This document shows positions 33,338-64,000 of a stretch of DNA of 64,000 nt, in pieces; the first letter of the stretch is position 1; each line of letters begins with the position of its first letter. The DNA is from Hyphomicrobium sp. (GTDB lineage Bacteria > Pseudomonadota > Alphaproteobacteria > Rhizobiales > Hyphomicrobiaceae). The stretch is from positions 33,412 to 97,411 of the forward strand of contig NZ_DAIQCD010000004.1 of assembly GCF_036780825.1 (NCBI RefSeq), in the 5' to 3' direction. The notes beneath the pieces are model-generated. The model had not been told where the DNA came from. It did no database searches and was given only the letters and a program-made list of their open reading frames with translations. A program made the translations under genes and the position numbers.

Positions 33338-33871
33338 ATGGCGCTCTACGAGCTGGATGGCATATCCGCCGACACTCCTCCCGACGGCCGATACTGGGTG
33401 GCGCCCAATGCGGTCGTCATCGGAAAGGTGGCGATCGAGCAGGATGCCAGCATCTGGTTCGGCGCGGTACTGCGCGGCGATAACGAGCTGATCCGGGTTG
33501 GAGCGCGCTCCAACGTGCAAGACGGCTGCGTTCTTCATACGGATCCGGGATTTCCGCTCGATATCGGTGAAGACTGCACCATTGGCCACATGGTCATGCT
33601 GCATGGCTGCACCATCGGCCGGGGCAGCCTGATCGGCATCGGGTCGATCATCCTGAACGGCAGCCGGATCGGGGAGGAATGCGTGATCGGCGCCAATACG
33701 CTGATCCCCGAGGGCAAGGTCATCCCGCCGCGCTCGATGGTGCTCGGCTCGCCCGGCAGGATAATCCGGGAGCTGACCGATGAAGAGGTGCGCGGCTTCA
33801 GCAAGGGTGCCGGGCGCTACGTGGCCAACTGGAAACGCTACAAGGCCGGCCTTCGCGCTCAAGCGGAATAG
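33338..33871 (+). CDS. Gamma-carbonic-anhydrase-like LbH protein
   Basis: IWFGAVLRGDNE, SNVQDGCVLHTDPG, TIGHMVMLHGC. Confidence 0.93.
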   Translation: MALYELDGISADTPPDGRYWVAPNAVVIGKVAIEQDASIWFGAVLRGDNELIRVGARSNVQDGCVLHTDPGFPLDIGEDCTIGHMVMLHGCTIGRGSLIGIGSIILNGSRIGEECVIGANTLIPEGKVIPPRSMVLGSPGRIIRELTDEEVRGFSKGAGRYVANWKRYKAGLRAQAE

Positions 33872-58802: not shown

Positions 58803-59771
58803 TTGGCCATCAAACTCTACAATTTTGCCTTCGGGCCTTATCCGCAAAGGCTCAACATCTACCTGGCCGAGAAAAAGCCAACCAATGTTGAGGTCACCCT
58901 GTTCGACGAGCCGGACAGACGGGCCGATGTCCCGCCGGCAGCGATCACGGCGCTTACTGTGACCGGGTCGATGCCTATCCTCAAAGATGAGGACGGCACG
59001 GTCATTGGTCAGTCGCTGGCGATCCTCGAATATCTCGAGGACAAGGCCTTCGGTCCCGACATGTTGGGAGCAATGCCTGCTGCGCGGGCGCGCACCCGGC
59101 AATTCGTGCATATGCTCGATGAAGCGCTGACGTTCTTCGGCCTATGGGGGCGTCATGGCAGTCCGCTCGGCCATGGCATCGTGCGGACCAGTCAGGACGT
59201 CGCCGAAATCTGCGCTATCAGGTATTTCGGGCAACTGCGTCTTATCGAGAAAATGATTGGCGGCACTGAGTTCATCGCAGGAGATCGGATAACCGTGGCC
59301 GACTGCGTTGCCATGGCGACCCTGCAATATGCGGCAGACTTCTACGCGGTACCGGTTCCACCGGAATGCATCAAACTACAGACGTGGTTCGAACATTTCT
59401 CCACGCGACCGAGCGCCGCTCGGCCCGGATACCCCGAGGATAAGCTTGCACGGGCGCAGGGCCTGGCCGCCTACTCGCTCAGCAGGCGCAGCAACCCTGA
59501 TGACGCGATTGCCGATCTGCGCTGCCGCGAAGGTACGATCATGAAGCGAATAGGTTTCTATTTCCGCGATGGCAGCCGGACTTGTTCGCCCCCCGTGCCG
59601 GACGCAGTCGCTGAATGGGCTGCCGAAAAAGAATATGATGTCGTAGTGTGGACAGGGCTGCCCAGCAACTTCAAGGATAAGACTGGCAAAGAGTTCTCAG
59701 TCGCAGAGGCAATTAGTCACCTCCAATCGCTGACTAAAGACGGCAAGTCTATGGCCGCAACTTATGTTTGA
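58803..59771 (+). CDS. Glutathione S-transferase (about aa 1-221) fused in frame to the 3' remnant of an unrelated gene
   Basis: LYNFAFGPYPQRL, SMPILKDEDG..QSLAILEYLE, ITVADC; after ..AQGL the sequence switches to AAYSLSRRS..DLRCREGT..VVWTGLPSNF. Confidence 0.75.
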   Translation: MAIKLYNFAFGPYPQRLNIYLAEKKPTNVEVTLFDEPDRRADVPPAAITALTVTGSMPILKDEDGTVIGQSLAILEYLEDKAFGPDMLGAMPAARARTRQFVHMLDEALTFFGLWGRHGSPLGHGIVRTSQDVAEICAIRYFGQLRLIEKMIGGTEFIAGDRITVADCVAMATLQYAADFYAVPVPPECIKLQTWFEHFSTRPSAARPGYPEDKLARAQGLAAYSLSRRSNPDDAIADLRCREGTIMKRIGFYFRDGSRTCSPPVPDAVAEWAAEKEYDVVVWTGLPSNFKDKTGKEFSVAEAISHLQSLTKDGKSMAATYV

Positions 59772-59903
59772 AGCGCACCGGATCTAATCCGAACGCCTCT
59801 AAGGAATGCCTTACAAGTCGAGCCATGGTTTGCCGCGTTTGCAACCGCCGGGGATGCAGCACATACCAATGCATCCGTAGGCGACGGTGAGCCGCCCATC
59901 TAG
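59466..59903 (+). pseudogene. 3' remnant of an uncharacterised gene (possibly GGCT-like) with an internal TGA at 59769
   Basis: The frame continues past TGA as SAPDLIRTPLRNALQVEPWF.. to TAG 59901-59903, which overlaps the qatD stop in one CTAG. Confidence 0.6.
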
Positions 59904-60652
59904 CTCCGCTCGGCAAGTAGGTCTTTGAGGTTATTCAGAATGGCTGCGGACATGTCTCTTACTGAAATCCCATGCAGACGCGCCAATCCCTCGACAGCGA
60001 CCCAAACATCGCTTGGTGTGGAAGGATTACCGCTAGTTTGTGTGAACGGTCCGTCCGTCTCTGTCAAAATGCGATCGAGAGGCAAAGATTTGGTTATTGC
60101 CGCCCGCTTTTCATTTACGAGCATCTCGGCGTTCACTGAAAAATAGCAGCCGAGATCTACCGCCCGCTTTGCCTCTTTCGCGGTACCGGTGAACCAATGA
60201 AGCACAACGCGTCCACGCTGGGGCGGCATGTATTGCTCGACCATATCGAGCACGGCTTTCGTCGCTCTGACGCTATGCGTCGTGACGATCTTGTTCCCCG
60301 CCGCCGCACAGAGCGTCAGCACACGAGCGAAAATCTCTTTTTGCGTCTCAAACGACCTGTAGAACCGCGGGCCGGCGTCCAGTCCGACCTCGCCAACATA
60401 GCGTGTTAGCGGAAGCAATTCCTCCCACAGCCCGATCTCGCGGGCGCGCTCGCCGACCAGTTGAGGATGCAGGCCGAGAGCCGCGCGAACGTGACGGGTG
60501 GCGGACGCCAGTTCATGGTTCCGCGGCCAAGCTCTAGGCGTGGTGGTCACGGCGAGGGTGAAAACGCCATCGCTCTCGCAACGCTCCACCGCGGCCACGT
60601 GGTCCGGGTAGAGATCGAGGTGGCAATGAAAATCAACGAGACTTGATCGCAT
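59900..60652 (-). CDS. qatD: Qat system TatD-family nuclease
   Basis: DFHCHLDLY, LGLHPQL, VGEVGLD, HSVRA, HWFTG, LTETDGPF. Confidence 0.92.
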   Translation of the reverse strand: MRSSLVDFHCHLDLYPDHVAAVERCESDGVFTLAVTTTPRAWPRNHELASATRHVRAALGLHPQLVGERAREIGLWEELLPLTRYVGEVGLDAGPRFYRSFETQKEIFARVLTLCAAAGNKIVTTHSVRATKAVLDMVEQYMPPQRGRVVLHWFTGTAKEAKRAVDLGCYFSVNAEMLVNEKRAAITKSLPLDRILTETDGPFTQTSGNPSTPSDVWVAVEGLARLHGISVRDMSAAILNNLKDLLAERS

Positions 60653-60660
60653 GATGCCTC

Positions 60661-62010
60661 TTACGACGGTGCGGTGCGAACGCCAGTCAGCAAGCGCCCA
60701 ACCTCTTCCAATCCGCGGCGGTAGACATCAGCCAAGTCATCGTGACGGGAAGGATCATCATAGAGCGGCCCTGGCTTGTGGATGAGGGCCTTGGCGAGTT
60801 CCGGACGCTTCGATAGCCGCGCGATCGCGATCTGAAAGGATCGGACCTGCTGACCTTCGGCCTGTCGGGTGTCTAATGTGGCAGTCTTCAGGTCTGGCAC
60901 GCCGTAAATTGTCGAATCCTTGCCCTGTAGAGAGGCCCGTCGAATGAGACACGGTAGGCAGTATCCGCAGTGTCCCTGTGGCTTCTTGGTCCAGCGCCCC
61001 TTCGTCGGCGATGAACATGATAGCGACAGCGGGGCGAGCTGCTTCAACAGGGCCGGATTGGTGCATTGGGTGACCATCTCCCCCTTGGTCTTGTCCCAAT
61101 AGGGATTTTCGACCTTCCCTCCGACACCGAGCGCCCGCAGCAGATCGTTCCACCGGGCCATGTAGAAGGGATGCGTCGTGCGGGTGCTGAGCGCGCCGAG
61201 CCGAAGTCTATCGAGCGGCACGTTGAGCGCGATCAACCCGTTTTCCGGAACCTTGAGCACGAAGTCGCGGCCGAGCGCAGTCCCGGCGGCCAAGCCCAGC
61301 GAGAAGAACAGGAACGAGCGGCCGCGTGTGGTGTCCTCCGATCCGACGTCCTCGACAAACCCGCTATCGAAGCTCATCCATACCCGCAGCCGATCGAAAG
61401 AAGAGGCTTTATAAGCGGCTTTCAAACCGTGGAAGCACTGCTCCTGCGACTTGCTCACCAGTCCTTCGCCGGCATGGCTGACCAGAAGCGGCGTCTCGCC
61501 GGCATTCAAGCTGTCGATCGCACCGATCAAACTGTCCAAACCACCGGAGAACAAGCTCACGCCATCGAACGGGGCGGGAATGAGGGTGGGCGCGGCAGGA
61601 GAAACCAGCTTCGCGTAGCCCTTGGCCCGTTTGCGGAAGCCCACATCCCATCTGTCGCCTGTCAGGAAGTTCAAGGCGCGGACCAAGATCGGCGCGGCGG
61701 CCGTCCATCGCACTGGATCGCTCACGGGGACGACTAATCGAATCTCGCGCGTCCAGGCATCCTGCGATTCCGTCGAGCGGGAGATGCGGGTGTCCGCTGC
61801 GTGAACGTGGGCCGCGACCACGAGCATGTCCGCGCCGATCTCGCTCGGGGTCAGGTGCAGCGCCTTGAGGTCAGCCAAGGCGTGGCCGATCCCATGATCG
61901 AGACGCTTGCCCGCTACCAACTGTAAGATCGATGCGACTTCGTCGCGCGCCTTTGGAACACGGGTCTTATCGTCCTCGCCGAAACGGCCAATGATGACAT
62001 GGCGCCTCAT
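60661..62010 (-). CDS. qatC: Qat system QueC-like protein
   Basis: LFSGGLDSLIG, RGRSFLF, VPENG, STRTTHP, SCSSP..HCGYCLPCLIRR. Confidence 0.93.
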   Translation of the reverse strand: MRRHVIIGRFGEDDKTRVPKARDEVASILQLVAGKRLDHGIGHALADLKALHLTPSEIGADMLVVAAHVHAADTRISRSTESQDAWTREIRLVVPVSDPVRWTAAAPILVRALNFLTGDRWDVGFRKRAKGYAKLVSPAAPTLIPAPFDGVSLFSGGLDSLIGAIDSLNAGETPLLVSHAGEGLVSKSQEQCFHGLKAAYKASSFDRLRVWMSFDSGFVEDVGSEDTTRGRSFLFFSLGLAAGTALGRDFVLKVPENGLIALNVPLDRLRLGALSTRTTHPFYMARWNDLLRALGVGGKVENPYWDKTKGEMVTQCTNPALLKQLAPLSLSCSSPTKGRWTKKPQGHCGYCLPCLIRRASLQGKDSTIYGVPDLKTATLDTRQAEGQQVRSFQIAIARLSKRPELAKALIHKPGPLYDDPSRHDDLADVYRRGLEEVGRLLTGVRTAPS

Positions 62011-62885
62011 TTCGCTGCCTCCCCATCGCCCATCGTCTGCAACACGTCGAAGGCGGATTGATAGACGTTAGTTACAAAGCCCATCACTGCATCTGGGGTC
62101 AGCGACTGAATGTTGACACCCGCGGCGTTGATCGCGTCGCTGACACCCCGCTGGATGAAATCACGCAATTGCGCCTGAACCCTCTCGGCCGCGCGCGGAT
62201 CGGCAGGCAAGGTTACGACCTTGGTGCCGATGTCGTTACAGATGCGCGCCTCGATCGCGTGAGTCGCATATAGTTCGAAGACGGTCTGGATTTGCCCAGG
62301 TGTCAGCGCGTCGATGTCGGTAATGCCAGCACCGGCGAGATCGGCGATCGTCTCGACGAAGGCGTCTCGCGCGATTCCCTCATCAATAGACCCACCTTCG
62401 GGGCAGATATAATCGGCGAGACCCGCGAACACTTCCTCGATCGGACGCCCGGCGAGGCTTTCAAGGTTGAGCGTTCGTAGCGCCTCACGCACGCCATTCG
62501 CGCTGGCGTCGTTGAGGAACCTGACCAGTCCAGCACCCGCGCCCCGCGACGAACCCATCCGCTGCGCAGCCTGGCGTGAGCCGCCCGCTGATTTGGACAC
62601 ATATTGCGAAACCGCGCGGCCGAGGCTCCTACGGTCGCTTCCGCCCGAACTTGCGAAACGCGTGAAATTGTTTCGGGCGGAAGTGAAGCGATCCGACGCC
62701 CCTGCCGGCGCGGTCGGCCGAGGTGCTGGCGCGGGAGGAACTGCGGGCGGCGCTCCATCAGGAGCCGGGGATTGCGTTCCGTCGCTATCACCCGCGCCAG
62801 CTCCGCCGTCGCTGTCACCTTGCAACCAACTCGGAATGAGCGGCGTACCGCCTCCTGCACCCCCATAGGCGTTCGACGTGCCCAT
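62007..62885 (-). CDS. qatB: Qat system protein QatB
   Basis: MGTSNAYGG..LIPSW, RFTSARNNFTRFA, GGSIDEGIARDAF; TGATG coupling to qatA and ATGA to qatC. Confidence 0.9.
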   Translation of the reverse strand: MGTSNAYGGAGGGTPLIPSWLQGDSDGGAGAGDSDGTQSPAPDGAPPAVPPAPAPRPTAPAGASDRFTSARNNFTRFASSGGSDRRSLGRAVSQYVSKSAGGSRQAAQRMGSSRGAGAGLVRFLNDASANGVREALRTLNLESLAGRPIEEVFAGLADYICPEGGSIDEGIARDAFVETIADLAGAGITDIDALTPGQIQTVFELYATHAIEARICNDIGTKVVTLPADPRAAERVQAQLRDFIQRGVSDAINAAGVNIQSLTPDAVMGFVTNVYQSAFDVLQTMGDGEAAK

Positions 62886-64000
62886 CAGCGACCACCCTTC
62901 CGCGTGCGAAGCGCGGCGCTCGCCGTGGGCTTCAGGAAGGACGAACCGGAGGTGGACCATCCTAAGAGTAGATTCTCGAAGCGCGCCACGGCGTCGGAAT
63001 CCTTGACGACACCCTCCCAACCCGACGCGGGCCAAGGCCCGCACCGATCGGCGGGCAAGGCTTCGAGCAGGTCAAGAAGATTGGCTTGAAGCGTCGGATG
63101 CGCGCGAACTAGCACCGCGAGTCCGTCGATGCCGGGTGGCACGGTATCAAAGGTGTCTCCGCCCATAACGCGCCCGCGCAGTTCCTCGAAGACCTGCGCC
63201 GCCTCCGCAGGAACGAGTTGCTTGAGTTCGCCTTCGAACGCTTGGACCGCGAGTTTTGGGCCGAGCAGTTTTTCGACCACAGCGGCGAGACGCCCGAGGA
63301 CGGAGGCCGCGCCAAAATAGTCTTTCCGATCCTTGGTGACGAACAGATAGGGGCGCAGATCGACCTCAGCCAAGGCCGGCGATAGCCGCGCCCAGGCCCG
63401 TATCGCGTCGGCCGCCTTCCATTCCGTCAGAACGGCACTGTCTTTGGAATCCGGCACGACGGTCGGCTTGGTGTCATCGATGACACTGATTTTCGGCCCG
63501 GCCCGCTTGGCCTTTGGAACTGGCTTCTTCTCCAACGCGGCGGCTTCAAGCGCCGCCAAGTCTGCGCAACGGCCGTCTGGATCACGGGCGGCGGCGCTGG
63601 CGATCTGATCGAATAGTCTGGAGAGGAACCGTTCGGCCAGCATTAGTTTCGCCAGGACGGGCAGCTTCACCTCTTCTCCGAAGCCGCGAGCGAGCGCGGT
63701 CTGATGGCGCAGCAGCAAGGTGTTCAAGAAGCGCTTGATCTGCCGCGGATTGCCCTGAGTACCGCTGGCCAGGATCGGACCGATCTGGTCGCTCAAGGTG
63801 AGCGCGTTCTGTACCTGGCCGGCTTTGTCGCCCAAGGCGGTCTTCACCGTCTGCGCGTCGAGCCCGGCCGTCTTCCAAGGCCGTTTGAGCAATTCACGCG
63901 CGACTGTGATGAGCGACGAGTAAGCGGGATCGTCGTCACCCAGCTCGGCGCCGATGAGCAACAGGGTGACGTAGATACGGGTTTCTGTTTCGCCCAAAGC
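62885..64000 (-). CDS. qatA: Qat system KAP-family P-loop NTPase (5' part outside window)
   Basis: LGETETRIYV, GNPRQIKRFLN, LAKLMLAERF, VDLRPYLFV. Confidence 0.88.
   Translation of the reverse strand, partial: ALGETETRIYVTLLLIGAELGDDDPAYSSLITVARELLKRPWKTAGLDAQTVKTALGDKAGQVQNALTLSDQIGPILASGTQGNPRQIKRFLNTLLLRHQTALARGFGEEVKLPVLAKLMLAERFLSRLFDQIASAAARDPDGRCADLAALEAAALEKKPVPKAKRAGPKISVIDDTKPTVVPDSKDSAVLTEWKAADAIRAWARLSPALAEVDLRPYLFVTKDRKDYFGAASVLGRLAAVVEKLLGPKLAVQAFEGELKQLVPAEAAQVFEELRGRVMGGDTFDTVPPGIDGLAVLVRAHPTLQANLLDLLEALPADRCGPWPASGWEGVVKDSDAVARFENLLLGWSTSGSSFLKPTASAALRTRKGGR

Follow-up and report, generated by a model that had tools for sequence, protein, structure and literature searches.

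In the anti-phage system QatABCD, a 1:1 complex of QatB and QatC is the minimal defense unit, and defense is abolished by the QatB substitution G2D, by mutation of the SGGxDS motif, and by T278/T280 mutations (PMC13279940). Mutations or deletions in the P-x-W region of the QatB tail likewise lead to a loss of defense (PMC13279940, PMC13639016). Edman data have revealed that Met1 of QatB is removed (PMC13376578), and the N terminus of QatB was found to occupy a pocket in QatC, while one group has reported, by liquid chromatography-tandem mass spectrometry, a low-abundance 7-amido-7-deazaguanine (NDG) adduct on the QatB peptide GTSKAY (PMC13639016). The QatB tail also binds QatD, which cuts single-stranded DNA (ssDNA) (PMC13639016). 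QatD has been described as a Mg-dependent 3'-5' ssDNA exonuclease and a Ca-dependent apurinic/apyrimidinic (AP) endonuclease that is inhibited by nucleoside triphosphates (NTPs) at physiological levels (PMC13434339), and QatA binds DNA, oligomerizes, and affects the range of phages covered (PMC13279940). The canonical form accounts for 98% of known Qat clusters (PMC13434339). Here, we describe a Qat locus in a Hyphomicrobium sp. genome (RpoB, 95% identical to that of H. zavarzinii), found at the end of a stretch of 64,000 nucleotides (nt) (contig C4, NZ_DAIQCD010000004.1, positions 33412 to 97411; hereafter the window). We conclude with high confidence that it is a complete canonical qatABCD anti-phage operon carried as cargo by a conjugative element.

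The window ends inside qatA, so that the operon, 59900 to 64843 in window numbering, extends 843 bp beyond it (Table 1). A first-pass annotation, made from the sequence of the window, had proposed four tightly coupled minus-strand genes in the order KAP NTPase, QatB, QueC-like protein, and TatD nuclease, and the open reading frames (ORFs) and junctions agree with this. The gene order and co-orientation are the canonical ones for QatABCD, and the RefSeq-annotated operon shows an identical layout. qatA and qatB overlap by 1 nt (TGATG, with GGAAGGGTGG upstream, as read from the sequence), qatB and qatC by 4 nt (ATGA, with GGGGAGG upstream), and the 8-nt gap between qatC and qatD holds a GAGG. The same annotation had raised the concern that qatA might be truncated or frameshifted upstream and called for its 5' end. 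This can be dismissed: in the genome, qatA is a full-length gene of 652 amino acids (aa) free of stops (C4:96296-98254, window 62885-64843). The four qat genes are intact and translationally coupled. A longer qatB starting at a GTG (63044) was rejected, as its overlap with qatA would amount to 160 nt and all 79 homologues keep the MGTS start.

All four products score above the NCBIfam equivalog cut-offs for their Qat families, which are 230 bits for QatD, 280 for QatC, 100 for QatB, and 600 for QatA. QatD reaches 349.2 bits on NF041926, QatC 535.3 bits on NF041925, QatB 249.3 bits on NF041924, and QatA, in a 661-aa open frame without stops, 913.7 bits on NF041923. The PADLOC profiles are matched over nearly their full length: QatD with 413.8 bits (5.7e-125, profile positions 3-249 of 250), QatC with 701.5 bits (1.1e-211, positions 1-452 of 453), QatB with 478.3 bits (3.1e-144, positions 1-293 of 294), and QatA with 1044.7 bits (E = 0, positions 1-644 of 646). 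Scores of this size exclude a chance resemblance. The matches to solved structures agree with this assignment. QatC aligns end to end (residues 1-448) with the QatC structures 9vlk (1.4e-126) and 9zee (1.3e-119), QatB residues 1-288 align with the QatB of 9zee chain A (6.6e-47), and the relatives of QatD in the Protein Data Bank (PDB) are 3gg7 (4.8e-62) and 9xsn (3.3e-51); a PDB sequence search with QatA returned no solved relative. We assign 9zee and 9zef to the Pseudomonas aeruginosa system because their P16 and W18 numbering matches. QatA in addition matches Pfam KAP_NTPase (1.6e-49).

QatD and QatC also resemble housekeeping enzymes, and the same kind of scoring separates them from these. 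QatD matches Pfam TatD_DNase (E = 5.4e-48) and is weakly similar to the YcfH, YjjV, and TatD structures, but it falls far short of the cut-off of the general model TIGR00010 (YchF/TatD; 132 bits versus 206) or of the three Escherichia coli equivalogs PRK10812 (58 versus 438), PRK11449 (56 versus 481), and PRK10425 (46 versus 395). QatC shares with QueC the SGGxDS PP-loop and a Cys cluster, but it has no Pfam match, and the canonical QueC signature (Pfam PF06508; YxQxHxxE, VPxRN, YPDC) is not found in it. A whole-genome search with PF06508 retrieved the queC gene on contig C12 and not the qatC locus.

Residues with a demonstrated or proposed essential function in the 2026 papers were looked up in this copy and in protein alignments covering 80 related loci. 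All are present here and nearly all are invariant among the homologues; none of the residues whose requirement was established by published mutagenesis is missing from this copy. In QatD, nine residues (H9, H11, H62, E88, D92, H126, H152, E198, and D200) are invariant in 81 of 81 sequences and place the protein with the type II TatD nucleases; their equivalents in Acinetobacter baumannii QatD are H8, H10, H60, E86, D90, H124, H148, E194, and D196 (PMC13434339). QatC has the PP-loop S155GGLDS160, the Zn-site motif C332...C348GxC351xxC354xxR357R358, and an invariant Thr pair, T276 and T278 (T278 and T280 in P. aeruginosa), in LSTRTTHPFYMAR, followed by H280-P281. The "cluster 2" motifs described for QatC (PMC13329287) were all found (D61, D73x4R78x7W86xR88, D119xW121xxxF125, R229xR231xxxF235, E256xG258, HP, and P303x4T308K309). 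This copy combines all the hallmarks of QatC, i.e., SGGxDS, four Cys, Thr-x-Thr in place of Tyr-x-Asp, the extensions, and "cluster 2," with conserved motifs as defined in PMC13329287 and PMC13279940. The motifs named in the first-pass annotation were recovered as well: SGGLDS and CGYCLPC at QatC residues 155-160 and 348-354, HCH at QatD residues 9-11, and the H/E/H/D set of QatD among the invariant residues just listed.

QatB begins with MGTSNAYGGAGGGTPLIPSW, and all 79 homologues share its G2, T3, S4, P18, and W20. Ahead of a conserved FTSAR motif lies a stretch rich in Pro, Ala, and Gly, 66 aa long here and 59 to 80 aa in homologues. At the sequence level, QatB thus shows the MGTS start with Gly2, the Pro/Trp motif in a predicted disordered tail within the 30 to 90 aa expected for QatB, and a predicted helical body. 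QatA carries Walker A (G40DWGAGKS47) and Walker B (IVLIDD209) motifs that are invariant in 76 of 76 sequences.

By analogy with the published work on homologues, the following course of events may be proposed for this copy. QatB would lose Met1, which would expose Gly2, and the Gly2 amine would then sit in the active site of QatC, a predicted Zn-binding PP-loop ATPase of the QueC family bound 1:1 to the helical body of QatB. With ATP, QatC would activate a carboxylate substrate, possibly 7-carboxy-7-deazaguanine (CDG) or something related, and join it to the QatB N terminus, a conjugation that would parallel the Cap9-CdnD deazaguanylation in type IV cyclic-oligonucleotide-based antiphage signaling systems (CBASS). 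The same QatB tail would tether QatD as a two-metal, NTP-inhibited 3'-5' ssDNA exonuclease and AP endonuclease, and QatA, a KAP NTPase, would bind DNA as an oligomer and extend the range of phages covered. The first-pass annotation, which likewise regarded the mechanism as only partly resolved, in line with the 2026 papers, had pointed out that any 7-deazaguanine precursor must come from elsewhere in the genome. Whole-genome family searches for queC, queD, queE, folE, and tgt bear this out, with a queC-queE-queD cluster on contig C12, folE on C24, tgt on C29, and none of the five on contig C4. CDG would then be made by the chromosomal folE, queD, and queE, and since these genes, together with queC and tgt, exist elsewhere in the genome, the precursor can be supplied in trans. 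Another PTPS/QueD-family gene lies apart from the cluster (Table 1).

Several points weigh against a working system of this kind. The chemistry of QatC has yet to be settled: two groups could not reconstitute the reaction with CDG, and Thr/Thr (T276 and T278 in this copy) takes the place of the Tyr/Asp pair that binds CDG. The P. aeruginosa and E. coli systems also differ in whether they require QatA and QatD. A crude sigma-70 scan of 8.6 kb found no promoter, although such a scan, built on an E. coli consensus, is weak evidence and uninformative for an alphaproteobacterium. Finally, a census of 37 isolate or near-complete Qat-bearing genomes, for which completeness figures are absent and in which one type of QueE model was used, gave a QueE-type match in 31. 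Of the six without this match, two Bosea genomes and Terripilifer carry both QueC and QueD and Pollutimonas has QueC only, while two lack any match to QueC, QueD, and QueE and yet have Tgt (472 to 500 bits) and an intact qatABCD. Because Tgt is present without these matches, these two, Oceanibium sediminis O448 and a metagenome-assembled genome of Hoeflea with a 6.2-Mb contig, are apparent queuosine salvagers. The presence of Qat without the CDG pathway is hard to reconcile with an obligatory role of host-made CDG as the substrate. This is a lead rather than a result; if true, Qat in CDG-less genomes would mean that the first substrate of QatC is not host-made CDG.

Judging from the sequence comparisons, the qat cassette is horizontally mobile. 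QatC is 92 to 95% identical across genera of Alpha-, Beta-, and Gammaproteobacteria, with carriers such as Bosea, Agrobacterium, many sphingomonads, Brevundimonas, Paracoccus, Luteimonas, Roseateles, Pollutimonas, and Algiphilus, and wherever the contig permits, the full operon is present in all 80 loci. In contrast, QatC does not exceed its cut-off in any of 40 relatives of the host (24 congeners and 16 genomes of the same order). The DNA shared by most loci runs from window position 59900 or 59967 to 64843 or 64852, i.e., from the end of qatD to 0 to 9 bp ahead of the qatA ATG, with 84 to 91% nucleotide identity in the closest loci.

Identity is not uniform within the cassette. QatD is 96% identical to the copy of Agrobacterium burrii and only 81 to 87% identical to that of loci in which QatA, QatB, and QatC reach 92 to 97%, and in most loci the DNA homology ends 67 nt inside the 3' end of qatD. 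Because the identity pattern of QatD differs in this way and the homology stops inside its gene, the mosaic suggests recombination within the cassette. Among the relatives, open frames of 640 to 680 aa in same-order genomes (G040:C18:8744-9799, G040:C11:4072-5070, and G032:C4:793354-794379) gave QatC-like matches of about 200 bits, short of the cut-off of 280, and 480-aa frames of the congeners G005 and G010 gave two weaker ones of about 110 to 130 bits; they may represent a distinct QueC-like family or fusion.

Table 1. Features of the qatABCD locus, its surroundings, and the 7-deazaguanine genes of the genome. Unprefixed coordinates are window positions; L002 is the numbering of the DNA flanking the locus (L002 5283-8098 is C4:98282-101097), and C numbers denote contigs.
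Feature	Position	Strand	Description or evidence
qatD	59900-60652	-	TatD-family (type II, HxH) nuclease, 250 aa
qatC	60661-62010	-	QueC-family PP-loop ATPase with N- and C-terminal extensions, 449 aa
qatB	62007-62885	-	QatC partner and putative substrate, 292 aa, starts MGTS
qatA	62885-64000 in window (to 64843 in genome)	-	KAP-family P-loop NTPase, C-terminal 371 codons in window
herA	L002 5283-7034	-	PADLOC HerA, 770.8 bits, profile positions 3-574 of 576
sir2	L002 7031-8098	-	PADLOC SIR2, 498.2 bits, profile positions 2-344 of 345
Conjugative backbone	L002 8266-18293 and C4:111872-129894		ParB-helix-turn-helix (HTH) protein of 779 aa (divergent), DUF736, DUF932, RovC-like DNA-binding protein, RepA (PF10134), ParA, TraF-like S26 peptidase, DUF3363 relaxase-type protein, TraG, TrbE/VirB4
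YhaV-family toxin	L002 11604-12128	+	Pfam, 1.9e-58
Remnant of convergent gene	59466-59900	+	92% aa identity to residues 71-215 of a 215-aa A. burrii protein
queC	C12:21741-22409		Family search
queE	C12:19968-20591		Family search
queD	C12:19512-19859		Family search
folE	C24:25293-25826		Family search
tgt	C29		Family search
Second PTPS/QueD-family gene	C49:1396-1737		108.7 bits; apart from the C12 queC-queE-queD cluster

The first-pass annotation was mistaken in placing the operon at the end of an island. The window merely stops there, and a complete SIR2-HerA (Nezha-type) system follows beyond it, on the same strand and 27 bp upstream of qatA, after which a conjugative backbone continues (Table 1). 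The context is probably a conjugative element, either a plasmid or an integrative and conjugative element. No tyrosine recombinase was found on contig C4, which ends within the trb region, and an Rfam scan of the 19-kb locus returned nothing. A 772-aa minus-strand ORF upstream of sir2 (L002 8026-10344) was considered as a gene and rejected, since it is the ParB-HTH ORF on the opposite strand that is conserved (54 to 75% versus 39 to 54% identity). A small ORF upstream of the YhaV-family toxin gene (L002 11300-11635) could encode a PrlF-type antitoxin, and many sphingomonad loci have a YhaV relative with 65 to 68% identity close to their Qat operon.

On the other side of the operon, a gene remnant is a scar that marks the left border of the imported defense block. 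In A. burrii, an intact 215-aa gene converges on qatD (L009 10108-10755), its product having an N-terminal ILGWGSLIW motif. Here, the gene is truncated at its 5' end and fused in frame to a glutathione S-transferase (GST) ORF (58803-59771), with an interruption by TGA at 59769, and the DNA homology to the A. burrii locus begins at window position 59454.

An 8.35-kb block comprising sir2-herA-qatABCD (window 59454-67805) is colinear in Bosea massiliensis, A. burrii, and Nitratireductor rhodophyticola, which raises the question of whether the six genes form one composite system with cooperating halves. This would add to, rather than contradict, the identification of the operon as qatABCD. The two halves lie on the same strand, and the short spacer between herA and qatA lacks a terminator-like hairpin; in a scan of 8.6 kb, terminator-like sites were found only inside sir2, qatC, and qatD. 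Because of this spacer, and because most copies share no DNA upstream of qatA, qatABCD is probably read through from the upstream sir2-herA genes, with transcription starting upstream of sir2. Still, the two systems are adjacent in only 3 of the 80 Qat loci, PADLOC keeps them separate, and the clustering of unrelated defense systems on mobile elements is the rule. Moreover, both systems defend alone, and subsets of Qat alone defend in E. coli (PMC13279940, PMC13434339). We therefore consider a composite system improbable, and slightly more so the wider proposal that the block is a single co-transcribed and co-transferred cooperating unit spreading among Hyphomicrobiales on conjugative elements. 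Were the halves to cooperate, SIR2-HerA could, for example, bring about a collapse of nucleotides or NAD+ and so release QatD from its inhibition by NTPs.

The cassette could also be intact yet silent or non-functional, hitchhiking on the element without a promoter of its own or without a suitable phage. Since the DNA common to most loci reaches no further than 0 to 9 bp ahead of the qatA ATG, the cassette brings no conserved promoter along; the lack of a sigma-70-like site and the deletion scar downstream of qatD would fit this scenario too. We nevertheless judge it quite unlikely, less probable than cooperation with SIR2-HerA. Four open frames and the conservation of all catalytic residues argue against decay, the herA-qatA spacer permits read-through, the sir2-herA-qatABCD block has been kept in three other genera with 84 to 91% nucleotide identity, and a promoter scan with an E. 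coli consensus is weak evidence in this host.

That the genes are simply housekeeping paralogues, a QueC of the queuosine pathway and a general TatD/YcfH DNase beside an unrelated ATPase, has next to no probability despite the family resemblances described above, and is rejected on the profile scores: PADLOC, which the first-pass annotation had proposed as a check, and NCBIfam assign the genes to Qat and not to housekeeping TatD or QueC clades, QatC lacks the Tyr/Asp substrate pair of QueC, the canonical queC is clustered with queE and queD on another contig, E. coli QatC fails to rescue a queC deletion (PMC13329287), and none of the 40 relatives examined has the operon, which is located on a conjugative element.

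We thus regard the Hyphomicrobium locus as a described system in canonical form, an ordinary copy that can be annotated automatically and changes little; indeed, the NCBI pipeline already names near-identical cassettes correctly. Its modest value lies in presenting a clean defense cassette with sharp borders, the DNA in common between loci coinciding exactly with the operon and passing between Alpha-, Beta-, and Gammaproteobacteria, in its position directly behind SIR2-HerA on a conjugative element, and in the two of 37 Qat genomes without matches to QueC, QueD, and QueE, which offer a cheap comparative handle on what QatC attaches to QatB. Only the stacking with SIR2-HerA and the lead on Qat without a CDG pathway go beyond routine annotation.

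Comparison with known systems places the locus as follows. SIR2-HerA (Nezha) is a separate known system, a neighbor of Qat and not a part of it. The likeness to the Cap9-CdnD deazaguanylation of type IV CBASS (Wassarman et al., bioRxiv 10.1101/2025.04.06.647259) is that a QueC-family enzyme takes the Gly2 amine of its partner into the active site for an ATP-dependent conjugation, the partner starting with MGGS in type IV CBASS and with MGTS in QatB. There are also differences: QatC is about 20 kDa larger, the CDG-binding Tyr/Asp pair has been remodeled to Thr/Thr, and the substrate of QatC is unproven. Unlike type IV CBASS, the Qat locus is without a CD-NTase or the TGT-like Cap10, neither a CD-NTase nor a TGT-like match being found in PADLOC and Pfam scans of the flanking genes, and it is not a member of that group.

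The P. aeruginosa QatABCD (Gao, Wassarman and Kranzusch 2026, PMC13279940) has the same four genes in the same order and shares with the present copy the MGTS N terminus, the P-x-W tail motif, SGGxDS, the four Cys, the T-x-T pair, and the LSTRTTHPFYMAR loop. It has been studied by crystal structures of QatBC, whereas the Hyphomicrobium copy differs in its alphaproteobacterial host, in a QatB tail that is richer in Pro and Ala, and in the location of the operon directly behind SIR2-HerA on a conjugative element. Plasmids of Sphingobium sp. YC-XJ3 (NZ_CP117472) and Sphingopyxis sp. 113P3 (NZ_CP009453), annotated by RefSeq/PGAP, carry qatABCD with 84% nucleotide identity over the whole operon. 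On these plasmids, the genes have already been named qatA to qatD by the NCBI pipeline, and the overlaps and the gap between them are identical to those described here. qatD, qatC, and qatA are of equal length on the Sphingobium plasmid and in Hyphomicrobium (753, 1350, and 1959 nt), while qatB measures 888 nt there and 879 nt here, a difference of three codons. The flanks, in contrast, are distinct, with IS21 elements and CopG/TraG on the plasmid and SIR2-HerA and the GST-fusion scar in Hyphomicrobium.

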